From the IMG/VR virus record IMGVR_UViG_3300009506_000050, positions 1-50,361 of that record: a stretch of DNA of 50,361 bases, one strand, 5' to 3'. Position 1 is the stretch's first letter. Every line of letters begins with the position of its first letter. Position numbers and translations under genes: made by a program. The DNA is from a virus. Lineage: Duplodnaviria; Caudoviricetes. Under the pieces are notes generated by a model that was not told the origin of the DNA, searched no databases, and saw only the letters and a list, made by a program, of their open reading frames with translations. Positions 1,221 through 13,077 of this stretch are shown here, one piece after another.

Positions 1221-1433
1221 ATGCCGAAAATCAGCGTTCCAGTAAATGATACCAAAGAATATGAAGCCTTCAGGGAGCATGCGAAGGCCAGGGGCTTTGA
1301 TGGGAACTTGGCGGCCTATGTCCGCTGGCTGATTAGGGATGATATGCGTCAATTGGAACTCGAAAAAGCCAATGGATTTCATCTTACCAAAAGGCGTGGT
1401 GAATTTCCTGGAGGAATTATACCTTCAAAATAA
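1221..1433 (+). CDS. Small ribbon-helix-helix-like DNA-binding protein
   Basis: N-terminal strand KISVPV then helices with NLAAYVRWLIR, a CopG/Arc-like pattern; good SD. Confidence 0.55.
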   Translation: MPKISVPVNDTKEYEAFREHAKARGFDGNLAAYVRWLIRDDMRQLELEKANGFHLTKRRGEFPGGIIPSK

Positions 1434-2335
1434 TGGATAATATCATTCAAATCAATTGGCAACGGTGTCCGATGTATCTATCCATGAAAAACAAGGTTTT
1501 TGTCTCCATTGTTTTTACGTGGCATCTTCCTTTGATTCGTCAATTCGCCCTCAACACTCATAAGAAAGTTATTGTTGGTGGACCTGCCACACAAATCATG
1601 CCTGACTATTTTCATGATGTCCAAAATGTACATGTTGAAACCAAGTCACCCATAAATTTCCTTGAGGCACATAATCCCCTTGCTACTTTTACCACACGGG
1701 GCTGTCCGAATACATGCTCATATTGCGCAGTTCCAAAGTTAGAGAAGCATTTTATTGAGCTTGAGAATTATCCTGTCAAGCCAGTCATATGTGATAATAA
1801 TTTCCTTGCCGCCTCAAGCGGGCATATCGAAAGATTTGTGGAAAAGGCAAAGGATCTTCCCTTTGTTGATTTTAATCAGGGACTTGATGCCAGACTTTTT
1901 ACAGAAGAGCATGCAAAGCTATTTAAACGCTTTCATCTTCCAATTATCAGGTTTGCAATGGATACAAAAGATCGTGAACTTGATGTTTTTCGGGCTATTG
2001 ATGTTTGTAGAAAGTTCGGAATCAATAATATATCTGTTTACGTTCTCATTAATCATGATGAAACGCCTGATGAAGCATTATATAAACTTGAAAGTCTGAA
2101 AAATTATGGCATCCAGACATTCCCGATGCGATATCAACCATTATGGTCTTTAAAATACAATGAATATATCAGCGACAAATGGCTTTATGCTTTCGGAGAT
2201 GAAGCAAATAAATGGTTAAAGGAAATCTGCCGCTATTACTCAATGTATAAACGCCTCGGAATCAAATCATTCGATATATGGATGGATGCAAGGCTAAAAG
2301 AAAACTCTTCATGTCACCAAGGATGCTTTCTATGA
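1433..2335 (+). CDS. Phage radical SAM protein
   Basis: TRGCPNTCSYC (CxxxCxxC), DNNFLA, DFNQGLDARL, upstream VGGP; visibly AT-rich. Confidence 0.85.
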   Translation: MDNIIQINWQRCPMYLSMKNKVFVSIVFTWHLPLIRQFALNTHKKVIVGGPATQIMPDYFHDVQNVHVETKSPINFLEAHNPLATFTTRGCPNTCSYCAVPKLEKHFIELENYPVKPVICDNNFLAASSGHIERFVEKAKDLPFVDFNQGLDARLFTEEHAKLFKRFHLPIIRFAMDTKDRELDVFRAIDVCRKFGINNISVYVLINHDETPDEALYKLESLKNYGIQTFPMRYQPLWSLKYNEYISDKWLYAFGDEANKWLKEICRYYSMYKRLGIKSFDIWMDARLKENSSCHQGCFL

Positions 2336-3609
2336 GCCTTGAGCCCTACTATCAGGAAAAAGGTATCACCCTATATGAAGGGGATTGCCGCGAGGCGATG
2401 GCGGCCATGCCTCGGGAAAGCATTGATACGATAATTACAGACCCGCCATATGGGCTTGAATTCATGGGTAAGGCATGGGATAGGGCGGTCCCTGGTCCCG
2501 ACTTCTGGACTCCGGCTCTCGATGTCTGCAAGCCTGGCGCCATGCTGATGGCCTTCGGCGGGACTCGGCTATATCATCGGATGATATGCGCTATCGAAGA
2601 TTCTGGATGGGAAATCCGCGACTGCCTCATGTGGCTTTATGGTTCGGGTTTCCCTAAGTCTCATGATATAAGCAAGGCGATTGATAAGGCGGTAGGAGCG
2701 GAGCGGGAGAAAATACAGCCCGGCAATGCCCCCTCTTATCAGCGTTCAATTGGGAATACTCGCCCATGGATGGACGATCCAAATCATAAAATTGATTCCA
2801 ACATCCCCGCATCCCCCGAGGCCGAGCAGTGGAATGGCTGGGGCACTGCCCTCAAGCCCGCATGGGAGCCCATAGTGCTTGCCATGAAGTCCCTGGACGG
2901 TACCTTTGCCCAGAACGCCCTCAGGCATGGCGTGGCGGGCCTGAATATTGACGGGGGGCGGATAGGATTGACAGAAAAAGATGCCCAAGCGATGGAGAGA
3001 TGTAATACTCCAGGTTCTGACTGTTTTCATAAATCAGAAGGCACCTCATATGGAAGGCCAACCCCATCTAAACCCTTGGATGTTACTCAAGGCCGCTGGC
3101 CCGCGAATCTAATACTGGATGAAGATACCGCTTTAATGCTTGACTCTCAAACTGGCGAACTGACAAGTGGTGATGCGCCCCTTAAAAGAAACAGTGATGT
3201 TTTCAGGGATTGTTACGGAGAGTTCAAGGGGAATTCTGTATGCCCCCCTGGTCGCACTAGCAATTCCGGCGGGGCTTCCCGCTTTTTCTATATCGCAAAG
3301 CCTGATGCCAAGGATCGCGGACATCGCGAAAAGGTTGAAATGCCTCTTTTCGATACAGTGGATAAGGGCTTTCGCAATACACATCCGACTGTCAAGCCTA
3401 CACCTTTGATGCATAGGCTTTTGGCATTACAGGCCTACCTTGCACGTCTCACTTCAACCCCTAAGGGCGGTATTGTTCTTGATCCTTTTGGCGGATCAGG
3501 TACGACGGCGATAGCTTGTCGCATGGTGGGCCGGGAATGCATCTTGATTGAAAAAGACAGAGAAAATCTTGATCTGACAATAGAACGGTTGAAGTTGAAA
3601 GGGTTTTAA
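2332..3609 (+). CDS. DNA N6-adenine/N4-cytosine methyltransferase (beta class)
   Basis: TDPPY catalytic motif, HPTVKP, VLDPFGGSGTT SAM-binding motif; ATGA overlap start at 2332. Confidence 0.92.
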   Translation: MSLEPYYQEKGITLYEGDCREAMAAMPRESIDTIITDPPYGLEFMGKAWDRAVPGPDFWTPALDVCKPGAMLMAFGGTRLYHRMICAIEDSGWEIRDCLMWLYGSGFPKSHDISKAIDKAVGAEREKIQPGNAPSYQRSIGNTRPWMDDPNHKIDSNIPASPEAEQWNGWGTALKPAWEPIVLAMKSLDGTFAQNALRHGVAGLNIDGGRIGLTEKDAQAMERCNTPGSDCFHKSEGTSYGRPTPSKPLDVTQGRWPANLILDEDTALMLDSQTGELTSGDAPLKRNSDVFRDCYGEFKGNSVCPPGRTSNSGGASRFFYIAKPDAKDRGHREKVEMPLFDTVDKGFRNTHPTVKPTPLMHRLLALQAYLARLTSTPKGGIVLDPFGGSGTTAIACRMVGRECILIEKDRENLDLTIERLKLKGF

Positions 3610-3835
3610 ATGAGTAACCGTATTACATGCCGACGTGATTGTCCATATGCCGCCTGTATAGATATCTGCGAGGATTATGGTAAAAAAATTACCGAAGGGC
3701 CTTCGTGCCAGAAATCCTAAAGAATACTTTCGGCGATACAGACAGATGCATAAAGATCATCATCGGAAATATGCCCGTGACTGGTATCATCGCAATAAGG
3801 CTTTGAAGGGGGCTTAACATGAAAGAGCATGGAAA

Positions 3836-5137
3836 ATGAATTATGCCACTGTCTGCTCGGGCATCGGGGCCCCAGAGGTCGCATGGAAGGACTTGTGGGG
3901 GCGTCCTGAGTTCGTCTCGGAAATAGAGCCATTCCCCTCCGCGGTCCTCAAGCATCACTATCCGGATGTCCCCAATTATGGGGATATGACCAAATACGAG
4001 GAGTGGCCTGACCATGAACTTGAGCTTATTTGCGGGGGAACCCCCTGCCAGTCCTTCTCAGTCGCCGGACTCAGAAAGGGAATGGATGACCCGCGCGGCA
4101 ACCTTACCCTTGTCTATCTCGGCATCCTTGCCCGATATAATCCCCGCTGGTTCATTTGGGAGAACGTCCCCGGTGTCTTTAGCTCCCGAAGCAATGGAGG
4201 CTCTGACTTCGGACGGTTCCTGTCCGCCCTGGCAGAACTCGGGTATAGTTGCGCCTACCGGGTGCTTGACGCTCAATACTTCGGAGTGCCCCAGCGCCGT
4301 CGTCGAGTCTTCGTTGTCGGACATCTTGGAGCGGACTGGAGACCACCTTACGCGGTACTATTTGAGCCCGAAAGCCTGCGCGGGAATCCTCCGAAGAGCG
4401 GAAAAGCGGGGGAAGGAACTGCCCGAGTTTTTGAAATCAGCCCTGGAGGCGCGGGCGAATGCGAAGTAATACCCACGTTTGACAGCCGATGCAAGGACGG
4501 ACCTATAAGGAATCAGATAGGCGCACTTGTCATGGCCCACGGGCAGGGGAACGCGGAGATATGCAGGGACGGGTCCCCGTCCCTCACCTGTAACCATGAG
4601 GCACCGATAGCTTTCATGGCCGGCCAGGGGGCAAAGGCAGGGAGCATTGCGGCAAGCGATAAGATAAGCCCTACCATTCGCAGTTCTGAAAGCGGCACGA
4701 ACAGAACGCCATGTGTAGCAATCCAGGACGGCAGGGGCATGGAGAAGGGCCAGAACGGTATCGGCATAACCGAGGGAGGGCCTGCATATACCCTTGACCA
4801 GACAGGAGCGCAAGCGGTCGCCTTCCAGCCCAAAGCCTCAGTCAGCCAGAGCATGAACCCATCCGAAACATGCCCCACCATCGGGACAACCAAGGAGCCG
4901 GGCATTATCCATAACACCATCGTCCGCCGCCTCACCCCCATCGAGTGCGAGAGGCTCCAGGGCTTCCCGGACAACTACACCCGCATCCCGTGGAAAAACA
5001 AGCCAGCCGACCTCTGCCCCGACGGCCCCCGATACAAGGCCCTCGGCAACTCCATGGCCGTCCCCGTGCTCCGGTGGATTGGCCAGCGTATCCAGTTATG
5101 GGAAAGCCTTGTAAAATCAGGCAAAATAAAGGCTTGA
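3836..5137 (+). CDS. DNA cytosine-5 methyltransferase
   Basis: CSGIGA (I), GGTPCQSFS (IV), WENVPG (VI), QRRRRVF (VIII), RRLTPIECERLQGFPD (IX), YKALGNS (X). Confidence 0.95.
   Translation: MNYATVCSGIGAPEVAWKDLWGRPEFVSEIEPFPSAVLKHHYPDVPNYGDMTKYEEWPDHELELICGGTPCQSFSVAGLRKGMDDPRGNLTLVYLGILARYNPRWFIWENVPGVFSSRSNGGSDFGRFLSALAELGYSCAYRVLDAQYFGVPQRRRRVFVVGHLGADWRPPYAVLFEPESLRGNPPKSGKAGEGTARVFEISPGGAGECEVIPTFDSRCKDGPIRNQIGALVMAHGQGNAEICRDGSPSLTCNHEAPIAFMAGQGAKAGSIAASDKISPTIRSSESGTNRTPCVAIQDGRGMEKGQNGIGITEGGPAYTLDQTGAQAVAFQPKASVSQSMNPSETCPTIGTTKEPGIIHNTIVRRLTPIECERLQGFPDNYTRIPWKNKPADLCPDGPRYKALGNSMAVPVLRWIGQRIQLWESLVKSGKIKA
4014..4469 (+). CDS. Nested +1-frame ORF resembling the M.EcoHK31I beta polypeptide
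   Basis: GAGGAG at 3998-4003 before ATG; WQNSG...NTSECPS..ESSLSDILE...YYLSPKACAGILRRAEKRGKELPE; resemblance recalled from memory. Confidence 0.65.
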   Translation: MNLSLFAGEPPASPSQSPDSEREWMTRAATLPLSISASLPDIIPAGSFGRTSPVSLAPEAMEALTSDGSCPPWQNSGIVAPTGCLTLNTSECPSAVVESSLSDILERTGDHLTRYYLSPKACAGILRRAEKRGKELPEFLKSALEARANAK

Positions 5138-5190: not shown

Positions 5191-5736
5191 ATGCTTAAAC
5201 CAATGTTAGTATCAGAGATTCCAGGCCATCGCGGGCGCATTCTCTCGCAGCCCTATGTTTTACTTCAGCCAAAGCTTGACGGCTGGTGCTGCATGGCCAA
5301 TACCCGCACACGCAAGATTTATACCCGCTCCGGCAATGAGATTACCACGCTGCCGCACATCAATGCTGCCCTTCCTAAAGGGGGTCCGGAATGGCTTCAT
5401 GGCGAACTATGGAAGCACGGGGCGACATGCGATACTGTCAGCGAGATGGTAAAAAATGGCGATCCAAGCCTTGAATTCCATGTTTTCGATTGCGTCAGCC
5501 AGGAACCCTATTCCGGGCGCTTGTACCGGATATCAAGCATACCGATGAATGAGACTATCAAAACAGTACCGACCTTTACCTCTGATAGCAACATAACACA
5601 GACCATCCGGGATGCCTATAATGCCTGCTTAGAGCGCGGTTACGAGGGCCTTATCATTCGCCTGGACGGTTACGGCTATGAGCATAAGCGAAGCATCAAT
5701 GTCTTCAAGATGAAGCCCGGCATCGAGGAGGTATAA
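5191..5736 (+). CDS. Minimal ATP-dependent ligase / nucleotidyltransferase (adenylation domain only)
   Basis: QPKLDG (motif I), YTRSG, LHGEL (III), FHVFD (IIIa), YEGLIIR (IV), FKMK (V), then stop. Confidence 0.8.
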   Translation: MLKPMLVSEIPGHRGRILSQPYVLLQPKLDGWCCMANTRTRKIYTRSGNEITTLPHINAALPKGGPEWLHGELWKHGATCDTVSEMVKNGDPSLEFHVFDCVSQEPYSGRLYRISSIPMNETIKTVPTFTSDSNITQTIRDAYNACLERGYEGLIIRLDGYGYEHKRSINVFKMKPGIEEV

Positions 5737-6566: not shown

Positions 6567-6715
6567 TGGGCAAGATTAAACCATGCTGTTTAAGATGGAT
6601 AGTGGCAAGATTTCATGGTTATAATTCTTCAGTCCAATTATCAATAGGGAATTATAAATACAATTTTAACAAGATTAAATTTTGCCCTGAATGTGGCAAA
6701 AAACTGGGGGTATAA
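6566..6715 (+). CDS. 49-aa Zn-ribbon-like protein (not in the ORF track)
   Basis: MGKIKPCC...IKFCPECGKKLGV; SD GGAGG; TAATG coupling at both ends. Confidence 0.6.
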   Translation: MGKIKPCCLRWIVARFHGYNSSVQLSIGNYKYNFNKIKFCPECGKKLGV

Positions 6716-7752
6716 TGGGCTCGATACCAGTCGGAATATCCGGTTCCAGGGCCGCGGCGGTCCTCGGCATGAATCCATGGCAGACGCCTTTTCAGGTCTG
6801 GCAGGATATCATGGAGCATCGCGAACCCGGCTTCAATGCGGCCAAGGGCTTCAAATATGAACCCTTCGAAGGCAACGCTTCGACGCGGTGGGGTCTGGCC
6901 TTTGAGGATTCCATTATCCGGATAGCCGAAGGGATTGCCGGCAGAAGCATTGTCAGCCGGGAACGCGAATTCAGCCATTCGGAATATCCTTTTATCACAT
7001 GCCACATCGATGGCGGCTATCAGGCAAGCCAGTCCCTCCATGAAGGCAAGACATCAAATGCCTTCGGCTTCCGGGACAAATGGGGAGAGCCGGGAACCGA
7101 CCTGATCCCGATTGAGTATCAGATACAGGTACAGCATCAGATGCTCTGCACCACGGCGGACGAATGTATTGTTTCCGTCCTTGTTTTCCCCAAGCGGCCC
7201 GACGAATGGGAAGAAGAGGGCTGGCGAGTTATCCCGCAAAATAATGGAAGCTATCTGCTAGGCCGCAAGATCGAAGAAGGCTCCTTAAAGGGTTGCGGGC
7301 ACGTAAACGATCCCAAGCAATGGGCGGTCATTCTCGCCCAGATGGGTTATTTCCATCAATATCCTGTCAAGGCAGACAAAGAGCTCCAGGCAAAACTGGT
7401 TGAAAAGTATGTTGCCTGGTGGGAAGCCCATGTCATAAAGCAGACTCCCCCGAAGCCCATTGTTTATGACGATATCCGTGCCATGATAACCGCGCCTTCG
7501 GGGACTATCATTGTTGATGATGATACAATGCGCTGGTTCAAGGAGTATAAAAATATCGGCTCGGAAATCAGCCAGACAGGGCGGCTTGCCAAGAGGCGCA
7601 ATCAGTTGAAAACCCTCATTCTCGACAAAGCCAGGGCCCTCGAGGCTACACTTGATGACGAAAGCACGGACAAATGGATATTCCGGGATAGCCAGGGCAA
7701 GAAGCTCGGCTCCTATGGCCGCGAGGCAAGCGGAAATATGGTTTTCAGATAA
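6715..7752 (+). CDS. YqaJ/lambda-exonuclease family recombination nuclease
   Basis: GISGS.AAAVLG.NPWQTP, WG..FE, HIDG, EGKT, YQIQVQHQM. Confidence 0.9.
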   Translation: MGSIPVGISGSRAAAVLGMNPWQTPFQVWQDIMEHREPGFNAAKGFKYEPFEGNASTRWGLAFEDSIIRIAEGIAGRSIVSREREFSHSEYPFITCHIDGGYQASQSLHEGKTSNAFGFRDKWGEPGTDLIPIEYQIQVQHQMLCTTADECIVSVLVFPKRPDEWEEEGWRVIPQNNGSYLLGRKIEEGSLKGCGHVNDPKQWAVILAQMGYFHQYPVKADKELQAKLVEKYVAWWEAHVIKQTPPKPIVYDDIRAMITAPSGTIIVDDDTMRWFKEYKNIGSEISQTGRLAKRRNQLKTLILDKARALEATLDDESTDKWIFRDSQGKKLGSYGREASGNMVFR

Positions 7753-7906: not shown

Positions 7907-8084
7907 AGGATCGGAAAACAAATGGCATGCCTTGATTTTCATATCCGGCATGTGGAGGGTTTTCTGTACTCCCTTTGCCATCGCAAAGGAAGTGCTGAAG
8001 CCGCATAGTTCCGCAAGAAGAGCCAGGGCCGCCGCAAACGACCTGGCGGCAAAGCTTAACATTAATCTTGAATGGGAGGACTAA
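7878..8084 (+). CDS. Hypothetical protein
   Basis: SD GGAGGTG. Confidence 0.5.
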   Translation: MMMLIKAKVRGSENKWHALIFISGMWRVFCTPFAIAKEVLKPHSSARRARAAANDLAAKLNINLEWED

Positions 8085-8088
8085 CAGG

Positions 8089-8973
8089 ATGGCAGGCGAT
8101 ATCGTAAAGCAGTCGGATAATATCAGGGACTTTTTGATGGTGCAGTTCAAGCCCATCATCAAGGACTATGCGACACGGGCATACAATGAGGATGCCTGGC
8201 TGAAATCGGCCATGATGTGCATCGTGGAATCAGAAGAGCTCCAGAAGTGCCTGGCCACACCGCAGGGCAAGGCAAGCCTTGTCCACGCTCTCAGATACGC
8301 GGCGGCCACCGGCCTTTCGCTTAACCCGCAGGAAGGCAAAGCCGCTCTTATCCCTTATGCCGGCAAGGTCGAGTATCAGGTAATGAAGGGCGGCATGATC
8401 GCGCTCGCCATGGCTTCCGGCAAGGTCGAATTCATAACCGCCGATACAGTGTATGAAAACGACGATTTCCAGATCGAAAAAACCATGGATGGCGACACCT
8501 ATCGCTTCAAGCCTGCCCTGAAGGACCGGGGCGACGCGCTCGGATATTTCGCGGCCCTCAGGATGACAAGCGGCACGGTACATGTCAAATGGATTGACAA
8601 GGCCAACATGGAAAAACACCGTGACCATTATGCCAAGGGCCTCCGGTATACCCATGAGGACAAGGCCAAGGGCATCAAAAAAGGCGAGCTCAAGCCCAAT
8701 CATGCCTGGGTCAAGTCCTTTGACGGCATGAGCCTTAAAACCGTCCTGAAGGCCCTCTTGCGCTCCCTGGAGATCAGCCCGGAACTCACAAGCGCGGTTG
8801 TCAGCGATGATCGCTTCGAGTCGGGGGAGATCCTTGATGTCACTCCCCGGGCCGAAGAGGCCGGAGCCTCTGCCGAAGACGTCAAGGAGCAAATGGCAGA
8901 GGTGGAAACCGAAGAGGCTGCCGGGACAAGCGAAGAGCCTCCGCAGGAAAAAACGGAAAAGGATTTATTCTAA
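8089..8973 (+). CDS. recT: RecT-family single-strand annealing protein
   Basis: AATGLSLNP..GKAALIPY, YQVMKGGM, VYENDDF, W...FDGM..KTVLK, acidic tail; follows the YqaJ gene. Confidence 0.9.
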   Translation: MAGDIVKQSDNIRDFLMVQFKPIIKDYATRAYNEDAWLKSAMMCIVESEELQKCLATPQGKASLVHALRYAAATGLSLNPQEGKAALIPYAGKVEYQVMKGGMIALAMASGKVEFITADTVYENDDFQIEKTMDGDTYRFKPALKDRGDALGYFAALRMTSGTVHVKWIDKANMEKHRDHYAKGLRYTHEDKAKGIKKGELKPNHAWVKSFDGMSLKTVLKALLRSLEISPELTSAVVSDDRFESGEILDVTPRAEEAGASAEDVKEQMAEVETEEAAGTSEEPPQEKTEKDLF

Positions 8974-10401: not shown

Positions 10402-13077
10402 ATGCCAGAGAAAATTGATACCTCTCGTTACAAACCACTGCTTCGTGATTTTCTCATTCGCCGCGGCGTTAAAATAAATGAGAGGAAGCGGCCCAATACC
10501 GCCCAATGCCCTAACCCAAGCCATTCGGATGAAGATCCGAGTGCCATTATTTATCCCGAGAATCTTCATTGTCCCATATGCGCTTTAACATGGGATGTCT
10601 TTGAAGTCGCGGGACTTCTCGACGGATTGACTGATTTCCCTGACAAGCTGAAGGCGGTCCAGGATACACTGGGAATCAGCGAAGTCAAGCCCGCCGGGCC
10701 CGGAGGATCCAAACCTAAGGACTCCAAGAAAGACAAAAAGCCCAAATATGAAGCAGTCGCCCTTGAGCGGGAAAGGGCCCTTCAGGTCTATTCCCCCACC
10801 GCTCTTCTTGAACGCGCAAAAAGCGCGAAATGGCTTGAAGGGGATATCAGGCTTATCAAGGTCTGGCCCTACTACAATGCCGAGGGCCTGATTGATATTC
10901 TGGATGCCCGCTTTGAAAATGAGCACGGCAAAAAAGCAGTCATAACCTTTTATTATGATGGCAAGGTTTTGCGCTCCGCCGGCGCTCCGATTCTGCTTTA
11001 TAACCGGAACCTCATTGAAGCCGATAAGGAATCTCCTGTCCTGATAGTCGAAGGCGCGAAAGCCGCCGAGGCTGCGGCAACAATCCCCGGCTTCATTCCT
11101 GTCACATGGAATGGGGGGGGCAAAAAATGCAAGATGGCCGACTGGACTCCCTTGAAGGAAAGAACAGTCTATATCTGGCCTGATGATGACCAGAAAGTCT
11201 ATGACGAAAAGCATGCCTTGGCTGGCGAACTGAAGCCCGAGCACGAACAGCCGGGCATCAATACAGCCCTGACGATAAAGAATAGGCTTCCGCAAGCTAA
11301 AATCATTCGCCCAATGCCCGAGGCCCGGAGCATCAAGCCTGATGGGGCCGATATCGTGGAAGCCCTGTCGCTTCCGGATATCAGCCCCGAGGCTATCGCC
11401 GAATATATCCTGACAGCCGAAGAGATCAAGACACCTGCAAAGGAAGCCGCCCAATCCTCGAGACCCCCATCAAGCCCACCGTCAAATCCAATCGATACTG
11501 CCCGCGAAGAGCCGGAACCCGAACTCTTCCCTTTCCGAATTCTGGGGGTTGCCGATGACGCAAAGGGATACTTCCTGGACAGGCATGAACGCCTGACATC
11601 GATGTCACTCGGCTCGATAACACAGAATAAGCTTTTAACGCTGGCCCCCCTGACTTTCTGGCAAATTCACTTTGCCACTGGCAAGGGCGGCATTATGGGC
11701 AAGGATGACTGGATAGCGGCAATTGACGCGGTCATTCAGGTAGCAGGGCAAATGGATTTCGACCCTGACAGGATTCGTGGCCGGGGGGCATGGCGCGAGA
11801 GGGATGGCCGAATCTGCTATCACGATGGACTTAATACTCTGGGCGAGACAGGCGAGAATCGCCTGTATTTGCGCATGACCCGCAAGGATATAGGCCTCGG
11901 TAGCCCTTTGCCGGAATTGGAGCGTCTGACGGCCATTCTGGACGTCACAGGACAGCTTTCCTTTGAGACCCGCGCCGACATGATTCGCTGTATCGCATGG
12001 TCCACGCTGGCCCCCTTTGCCGGGGCCCTCCCCTGGCGCCCCGCCGGACTCTTGACGGGCCGCTCAGAATCAGGAAAATCGACAATTGTAGACATGATAA
12101 TCAAGCCCCTTTCACTTCCATTCGTATTCTCTGGCGGCGAAACAACCGAGGCTGGCGTCAGACAGACAATCAAGAATGACGCGACGGCCATCGTCATTGA
12201 GGAAGCGGAAACCGACACACCGAAGAAGCGACAGAGGCGCGACGATATCCTTTCCCTGATGCGCCAGTCCACCTCGGACGAAACCCCGAAGGCCGCAAAG
12301 GGGACCATTGACGGAAAAGGAATGATGTTTACCCTCCGGAGCATGTTCATGTTTGTCGCCATCAGCCCCGAGGTTGAATCTATCGCGGACGATAACCGCC
12401 TCTTCCGGGTAAACCTTGAGAAAAACAATAATGACTGGCCCACGCTGAAAAACAGGCTCGGGGAACTTTTGACGCCGGAGCTTTGTTCGTCCATCCGCGC
12501 CTTTACATGGTCCAGGATGACGGAAATATTTCGGCTAGCGGATATAATGTCTCCCGTAATACAGAAAGTGACGAACAAATCAAACCGCTATGCCCTGGCC
12601 GAAGCCATACTATTCGCGGCCTATCAGATAATCTGGAAGCAGGTCGAATTAAATGAAGATGACCTTTACAGGTTTTTCGAACAAATCTATGACTGGCAAC
12701 CGCCCGAAGAAAGCCGTGACGAAACCGAAGAGCTCCTTGACAGGCTTCTCGATGAAAGCATTCAGGAAGGCAAAGACAGATATACCCTTCGCGAGATCCT
12801 CCAGAAAGCGGACAGAGGGCCGTCAGATCCGGTTTATTTCAAGAGCATCGCGGGCCGTTACGGTCTCGGCCTGACGCCCGATGGCGATCTGGCTATTGCG
12901 AAAAATTTTCATGCCATATCCCGCATCATCGAGCGCGGGCGCGGATACCAGCGCATATTCTGGCGGCACCCCCTGCTTATAGCGAAGGGCCGCTCCGTAG
13001 CCATAGCGGGGAAGGTCCGCAACTGCCTTGTAATCGATAAAAAGATACTGACCGAGTCAGGGGAAGAGGTTTTCTAA
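10402..13077 (+). CDS. Primase-helicase (Zn finger + TOPRIM + P-loop NTPase)
   Basis: CPNPSH.D..PS...HCPIC; IVEG..AA and WPDDD (TOPRIM); GRSESGKS Walker A, IVIEE Walker B. Confidence 0.85.
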   Translation: MPEKIDTSRYKPLLRDFLIRRGVKINERKRPNTAQCPNPSHSDEDPSAIIYPENLHCPICALTWDVFEVAGLLDGLTDFPDKLKAVQDTLGISEVKPAGPGGSKPKDSKKDKKPKYEAVALERERALQVYSPTALLERAKSAKWLEGDIRLIKVWPYYNAEGLIDILDARFENEHGKKAVITFYYDGKVLRSAGAPILLYNRNLIEADKESPVLIVEGAKAAEAAATIPGFIPVTWNGGGKKCKMADWTPLKERTVYIWPDDDQKVYDEKHALAGELKPEHEQPGINTALTIKNRLPQAKIIRPMPEARSIKPDGADIVEALSLPDISPEAIAEYILTAEEIKTPAKEAAQSSRPPSSPPSNPIDTAREEPEPELFPFRILGVADDAKGYFLDRHERLTSMSLGSITQNKLLTLAPLTFWQIHFATGKGGIMGKDDWIAAIDAVIQVAGQMDFDPDRIRGRGAWRERDGRICYHDGLNTLGETGENRLYLRMTRKDIGLGSPLPELERLTAILDVTGQLSFETRADMIRCIAWSTLAPFAGALPWRPAGLLTGRSESGKSTIVDMIIKPLSLPFVFSGGETTEAGVRQTIKNDATAIVIEEAETDTPKKRQRRDDILSLMRQSTSDETPKAAKGTIDGKGMMFTLRSMFMFVAISPEVESIADDNRLFRVNLEKNNNDWPTLKNRLGELLTPELCSSIRAFTWSRMTEIFRLADIMSPVIQKVTNKSNRYALAEAILFAAYQIIWKQVELNEDDLYRFFEQIYDWQPPEESRDETEELLDRLLDESIQEGKDRYTLREILQKADRGPSDPVYFKSIAGRYGLGLTPDGDLAIAKNFHAISRIIERGRGYQRIFWRHPLLIAKGRSVAIAGKVRNCLVIDKKILTESGEEVF

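Follow-up and report, generated by a model that had tools for sequence, protein, structure and literature searches.

C5 DNA methyltransferases composed of more than one polypeptide have been described before. In the parts of the published accounts available to us, the small chain of M.EcoHK31I (and of M.EaeI) is encoded wholly inside the gene of the large subunit, in another reading frame; this beta chain of about 150–176 aa supplies motif IX and is reported to stabilise site-specific binding (PMC2836561, PMC3404938). For the M.AquI-type split, the available part of the same literature assigns motifs I–VIII to the alpha chain, and the rest of the variable region together with motifs IX–X to the beta chain (PMC3404938).

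The window analysed here, i.e. the whole stretch of DNA under study, is a complete virus record of 50,361 bp. Its early/replication module includes a gene for a single-chain C5 methyltransferase (Table 1). The assignment is based on a match to PF00145 (E 8.7e-52; 177 bits compared to a curated cut-off of 22), matches to phrog_116 (E 2.8e-87) and TIGR00675 (E 1.8e-50), and motifs IV, VI, VIII, IX and X as read in the main chain. Within this gene lies an ORF that, because (4014 − 3836) mod 3 = 1, is in the +1 frame; both the nested ORF and its 151-aa product are referred to as X in the following. X overprints main-chain residues 60–211, from just before motif IV (PCQ) to approximately 50 codons past motif VIII (QRRRR), and reading of the sequence places PCQ, ENV (motif VI) and QRRRR all within the overlap. 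The C-terminal block of X overlaps the poorly conserved linker that follows motif VIII in the main chain. A first-pass annotation, made from the letters alone, had proposed a 151-codon +1-frame ORF with its own Shine–Dalgarno (SD) sequence, spanning motifs IV–VIII and ending in a protein-like block (SLSDILE...); the ORF, the SD motif, the motif span and the block were all recovered. The ORF itself, its conservation, a coding-type selection, conserved start signals and natural fusions are observed, as detailed below, and support the view that the nested frame codes for an actual protein with its own role. X is almost certainly a real, ancient and widely conserved overlapping gene, and the account that we favour as the probable one is that of a genuine gene whose product serves the C5 methyltransferase in trans as a subunit.

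Table 1. Features of the nested gene X, its host gene and the surrounding module (positions in the window)
Feature	Position	Strand	Description
X, nested gene	4014..4469	+	151 aa, ATG start, inside the C5 methyltransferase ORF 3836..5137, kept across the family
Shine–Dalgarno-like GAGGAG	3998..4003	+	10 nt before the X ATG; written in main-frame E-E of the conserved Y-(K/E)-E-W
X start codon	4014..4016	+	ATG in this genome
X residues 75–78 (NSGI)	4236..4247	+	Predicted pairing with methyltransferase strand 139–145 (motif VII); lowest-error contacts
X residues 101–148	4314..4457	+	Helical C-terminal block, LSDILE ... YYLS ... GILRRA ... LP, confidently predicted
C5 DNA cytosine methyltransferase	3836..5137	+	Single chain, motifs I–X, 433 aa; PF00145, phrog_116, TIGR00675
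Motif IX of main chain, residues 364–377	4925..4966	+	Predicted contact surface for X
Radical-SAM protein	1433..2335		Early/replication module
N6/N4 methyltransferase	2278..3609		Early/replication module
Ligase-like ORF	5191..5736		Early/replication module
RecE-like	6691..7752		Early/replication module
RecT-like	8068..8973		Early/replication module
Primase	10402..13077		Early/replication module

Several features of the neighbourhood should be noted in their own right. The radical-SAM ORF overlaps the start of the N6/N4 methyltransferase gene by 58 nt. An Oscillospiraceae phage (L171:1–1366) shows the order DNA methyltransferase, radical SAM, C5 methyltransferase with nested ORF, which differs from that of the window; the presence of a radical-SAM protein beside methyltransferases in both phages may reflect a recurring DNA-modification module. 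A very basic 46-aa ORF is located at 3677–3817, between the two methyltransferase genes. The ligase-like ORF comprises just 181 aa and matches only the middle of ATP-dependent ligase profiles (PF01068 at 26.1 bits, slightly under the cut-off of 26.2; phrog_114 at positions 222–421 of 634), and may be a truncated, minimal or split ligase. Antisense to the methyltransferase's variable region (4358–4974, − strand) are two further ORFs, of 151 and 153 aa, which may be chance frames.

In its layout the locus resembles M.EcoHK31I as far as that system is described in the available sources, with X of similar size and situated wholly inside the gene of the large chain in the +1 frame. The motif division differs. 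The large chain of M.EcoHK31I is described there as lacking motif IX, which is supplied by the small chain, whereas the main chain in the window carries motifs I–X. Motif IX was located at residues 364–377, in agreement with the first-pass annotation, and is invariant across 45 relatives at R364, T367 and E370–F377. Conversely, X was said to lack this motif. When homology of its C-terminal block to a canonical methyltransferase segment was tested by hhalign, the YYLSPKACAGIL stretch aligned only weakly with motif IX of E. coli Dcm (probability 0.5, E 0.12), which we regard as no more than a lead, while comparison with the methyltransferase family's own profile gave no match to motif IX. The analogy to the beta chain drawn in the first-pass annotation thus holds for the layout and fails on one defining feature, because the main chain carries motif IX. 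X could still be a true homologue of the M.EcoHK31I/M.EaeI beta chain, which would make it a new member of a two-polypeptide type already on record. This reading overlaps with that of a trans-acting subunit, and it draws on the shared layout as well as on the fact that the best X–Dcm alignment, albeit weak, falls on the very motif assigned to beta. In view of the motif division, the lack of a profile match to the family's own motif IX, and a tblastn search of plasmids that returned only P1-like dmt and similar methyltransferase genes, we consider it doubtful.

The role of X as a separate subunit was addressed by structure prediction. Folded alone with AlphaFold2, X reached a mean pLDDT of 67.9 and was confident only for approximately residues 101–148, which form three helices, with pLDDT values of 91–98 at positions 110–150. 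A protein of the fused type (P0267, see below) folded alone with its alignment gave a poor model with a mean pLDDT of 52.5. Prediction of the enzyme together with X, a check set beforehand, placed X on the catalytic domain with an ipSAE of 0.85, compared to 0.00 for the best of three controls. Of 80 solved complexes, 58 reach the mark applied to such scores, as do 2 of 110 mismatched pairs, a calibration that is rough here as custom alignments were used. At least 55% of the contacts agreed between runs, with a partner pLDDT of at least 67. The contacts of lowest error connect X 75–78 with enzyme strand 139–145, X 105–106 with E370 of motif IX, and X 24–31 with residues 168–173, and a further contact is predicted between R364 of the enzyme and X115. 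The residues involved include L101, L105 and G77, which are nearly invariant in X, as seen for G77 in the alignment of X homologues. Searching the PDB with the single sequence of X gave no relevant match, searching it with the X profile gave 0 matches at E ≤ 10, and the best match by fold among solved structures had an E of 9.3. As no solved structure resembles X by sequence or fold, confidence in the binding mode is that of a single model.

A second line of evidence stems from proteins in which X is part of a longer chain. Proteins of 266–2000 aa yielded 1783 candidates, of which 161 match X. The 124 longer relatives analysed comprise 115 of the 120 matches listed and nine from the HMMER cluster search. 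In 92 of them X is followed by motif IX and/or motif X with no motif I–VIII pattern, and for ten longer relatives tested against Pfam the PF00145 match was confined to the C-terminal part in seven. Some fused clusters are large, such as P0323, with 36 members on 28 contigs, and P0329, with 157 members; the full-length fused clusters are mostly singletons, which could include assembly frameshifts. X is found either free or as the N-terminal domain of recognition halves in split enzymes (X-TRD-IX-X, the last X denoting motif X), and it is therefore physically linked to the methyltransferase. What the fusions demonstrate is an association of X with the TRD-IX-X half, rather than its action there.

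Taking the sequence comparisons and the model together, X is probably a subunit or docking module of the C5 methyltransferase. X would start from its own ATG or TTG behind an SD sequence written into the conserved Y-(K/E)-E-W codons of the methyltransferase, and its product would act in trans as a subunit that is required for methylation or stimulates it. The largely extended N-terminal half of X is predicted to pair as an additional strand with motif VII, the edge strand of the catalytic domain, and the three-helix C-terminal block to pack against motif IX and the C-terminal helix, which would leave the basic helix GILRRAEKRGK exposed, possibly for DNA. In split enzymes the X module would form the N-terminal domain of the subunit bearing the TRD and motifs IX–X and would dock this subunit onto its catalytic partner; the enzyme of this phage is a single chain, and X would be supplied separately from the overlapping frame.

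Alternatively, X may be a real protein that functions outside the enzyme, e.g. by regulating the expression or the timing of the methyltransferase or by acting on host defence, and that is merely housed in this gene for co-expression. Gene overlap is a common means of coupling expression in phages. Moreover, the exposed basic helix of the model could bind nucleic acid, and the main chain is complete; with all ten motifs it could be self-sufficient, which counts against a subunit. However, in-frame fusions of X to the TRD-IX-X half recur in several lineages, and the complex prediction passes its controls. X gave no family match in Pfam or NCBIfam and only a weak one in PHROGs, to a phrog named "DNA methyltransferase" (phrog_16143, E 1.6e-4), so that none of these collections suggests another role. 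A role outside the enzyme thus appears unlikely. With regard to the roles offered in the first-pass annotation, an accessory subunit or recognition partner fits best on account of the TRD-IX-X fusions and the complex prediction, and a regulator is disfavoured.

The subunit reading gains a natural context from relatives with divided genes. In L097 an ORF with motifs I–VIII (220 aa) is overlapped over about 500 nt by a 480-aa ORF carrying X-TRD-IX-X. In four loci from Clostridia the X-TRD-IX-X ORF overlaps the ORF with motifs V–VIII, as its +1 frame. In mycobacteriophage Omega, motifs I–VIII, X, and TRD-IX-X are found as three ORFs.

Further irregularities in frame were recorded among these relatives. 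In Omega (L082:1685–2989), gp127 (motifs I–VIII) and gp128 (TRD, IX and motif X) are in the same frame with one stop codon and 6 nt between them; the enzyme is therefore either in two parts or completed by readthrough, with the nested ORF as a third piece. In four loci of Clostridia/Oscillospiraceae (L083:430–520, L084:3890–3980, L085:2290–2385 and L086:435–520) the frame is interrupted immediately behind the catalytic PCQ codon. Motifs I–IV end in a 100-aa ORF and motifs V–VIII resume one base back; the junction sequence is common to the four loci and both parts are intact. The junction may be a conserved frameshift site, a sign of a three-piece enzyme or a shared lesion. L101, L102, L161, L091 and L165 show more frame arrangements, some with motifs IV/VI in another frame than VIII, others with motif IX in a third frame or with stops between the pieces, which could reflect true variants or errors of assembly.

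How translation of X would be initiated was deduced from the region upstream of PCQ. Of 68 distinct homologues, 34 have ATG, 32 TTG and 2 GTG as the first start codon of the +1 frame, so that one of the three is found in 68/68; a conserved start with a ribosome-binding site is what a functional overlapping gene should have. The start lies 29–38 nt before the PCQ codon in 63/68, and an SD-like motif, mostly AAGGAG, is located at most 20 nt upstream of it in 59/68. A +1-frame stop precedes the X start just upstream, 32–152 nt before PCQ, in 81/81 loci (the best 80 of 174 relatives and the window). The upstream stop and the conserved start and SD sequences therefore favour independent initiation over ribosomal frameshifting from the methyltransferase frame, by which an isoform with motifs I–IV followed by X would be formed. 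The frame relations in the four Clostridia loci, in which motifs I–IV share the frame of X-TRD-IX-X and motifs V–VIII are in the other, would suit such an isoform; yet stops separate the first ORF from the X ORF in the Clostridia loci too, and a slippery sequence is not apparent at the Clostridia junction. We regard frameshifting as very improbable, and it was set aside on the upstream stops and the conserved start signals.

The evidence that X is a coding gene under selection derives from two samples of relatives. When viral contigs were scanned with the methyltransferase, 175 stretches matched and 174 of these are relatives; the best 80, at 40–49% identity to the query, were kept. All 80 loci and the window contain one continuous ORF with motifs IV and IX. 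In these 81 loci (the best 80 of 174 relatives and the window) the +1 frame is open in every case, for 149–207 codons (median 160), compared to a median of 30 open codons for the +2 frame, and 68 distinct +1 translations could be aligned over their entire length. For a reference, synonymous codons were drawn from the genes' own usage outside the overlap while the methyltransferase protein was kept, with 30 replicates for the 68 distinct genes. This raised the mean number of +1-frame stops over the overlap from 0.15 observed to 8.59. Stop-free frames numbered 0/68 in each of the 30 replicates, compared to 59/68 observed over the exact span of the window's ORF, and pairwise amino-acid identity in the +1 frame was 0.290 after resampling and 0.558 as observed.

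The codon alignment of the 68 distinct genes, with a median pairwise protein identity of 0.59, was further analysed for synonymous codon identity, i.e. the share of same-amino-acid pairs with the same codon, in successive alignment windows. Values of 0.52–0.85 were found for those starting at 3986–4436, compared to 0.31–0.49 outside the overlap. The maximum of 0.75–0.85 coincides with the least conserved part of the enzyme, residues 171–210, where main-chain identity is 0.21–0.38. The reduced synonymous variation at 4014–4469 that had been set as a check beforehand was thus found, with the excess constraint confined to the overlap; likewise, the frequent stops among homologues that were to speak against a nested gene did not appear, in either the first sample or the second (see below). 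Over main-chain residues 163–208 codon position 1, which is position 3 of X, is the most variable (0.50) and position 3, which is position 2 of X, the least (0.27), whereas outside the overlap position 3 of the main chain varies most (0.56 and 0.61).

The second sample, obtained with a different query, comprises 80 loci with 57 distinct single-chain genes, and at least 140 open +1 codons were found in 56/57. After motif VIII, the variability of position 1 (0.33) again exceeds that of position 3 (0.19), reproducing the first result. Motif VIII lies one frame behind X in 74/74 loci in which both could be placed; of the remaining loci, 2 could not be placed and 4 gave no match to the X pattern. 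RNA structure and codon bias are rejected as explanations because neither gives the phase switch and the open frame together. Although the N-terminal half of X overprints the most conserved motifs of the enzyme (IV–VIII), which in itself conserves much of the nucleotide sequence, an open frame as a mere by-product of methyltransferase sequence and codon usage is scarcely credible, as it never arose in resampling, the constraint is strongest where the enzyme is least conserved, the codon phase there follows the X frame in both samples, and the X domain occurs in the main frames of other proteins.

X belongs to a broad family. A HMMER search of 1.84 billion cluster representatives returned 3793 proteins at E ≤ 1e-3, of which 1255 reach 1e-10 and 9 reach 1e-30, and lengths are mostly 150–250 aa among the matches listed (150 of the 3793). 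In a word-indexed search, 1615 of 1694 candidates of 83–265 aa match X; among the matches listed (120 of the 1615), all are unnamed or "hypothetical" except two with other labels, and matches in the ESM Atlas were unnamed viral clusters only. By tblastn, the X peptide was detected in 127 phage records (Vibrio 25, Mycobacterium 19, Escherichia 11, then Ruminococcus, Streptococcus and others) and in 529 plasmid records, mostly P1-like. Phage P1 itself has a 162-aa ATG ORF (L081 2372..2860) in the +1 frame of dmt (2071..4335), and mycobacteriophage Omega a 157-aa +1 ORF inside gp127; in the Oscillospiraceae phage the +1 ORF lies inside a 605-aa methyltransferase annotated as hypothetical. The nested ORF has no annotated CDS in any of these three phage records, which were those opened. 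Actinophage methylases carry an out-of-frame HNH insertion according to the available part of one report, and this insertion is different from X (PMC11855218). A published description of the nested gene was not found in a search to which subscription journals were mostly outside, and an earlier description elsewhere, e.g. in REBASE, may exist.

In a wider perspective, a large phage-borne class of C5 methyltransferases, including P1 Dmt and enzymes of mycobacteriophages, cyanophages, Vibrio phages and phages of gut Clostridia, might need a hidden subunit from an ancient overlapping gene. Compensating changes of frame at the borders of the overlap would have moved the module between layouts in which it is nested and free, joined to the recognition half, or part of a three-piece enzyme. 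We put this forward tentatively, as a plausible generalisation. If it is true, thousands of annotated genomes miss a gene, and recoded or codon-optimised versions of these methyltransferase genes silently lose a subunit; expression and assay of these orphan enzymes would change, because codon optimisation destroys the nested frame. Annotation practice would change as well, X being covered by no Pfam or NCBIfam model. X itself is a well-supported long overlapping gene in a phage family that includes model phages, with a concrete proposed function that can be tested, and the alternative layouts provide a natural series for the study of enzyme splitting, fusion and overprinting.

Compared to the described systems by layout and motif division, the X family differs from M.EcoHK31I also in being very large and phage-borne, and the M.EcoHK31I oddity may be one case of a general design. 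The likeness to M.AquI, as covered in the available source, concerns relatives that are split at the same place, into an ORF with motifs I–VIII and one with X-TRD-IX-X (L097; L084/L085) or TRD-IX-X (Omega gp127/gp128); where X-TRD-IX-X occurs, the variable region of the second subunit begins with X. By contrast, the enzyme in the window is unsplit, with motifs I–X in one ORF rather than divided between two separate genes, and the two genes of the split relatives overlap by about 380–510 nt, with the second in the +1 frame, a feature that the available part of the M.AquI account does not describe (PMC3404938). Finally, X resembles long same-strand overprinted genes of phages and other viruses, in that one stretch of DNA encodes two proteins, excess synonymous constraint is seen within the overlap only, and the start is internal. 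Unlike the usual overprinted gene, X is apparently a partner of the very protein that it overlaps, and elsewhere an in-frame domain of that protein's other half.
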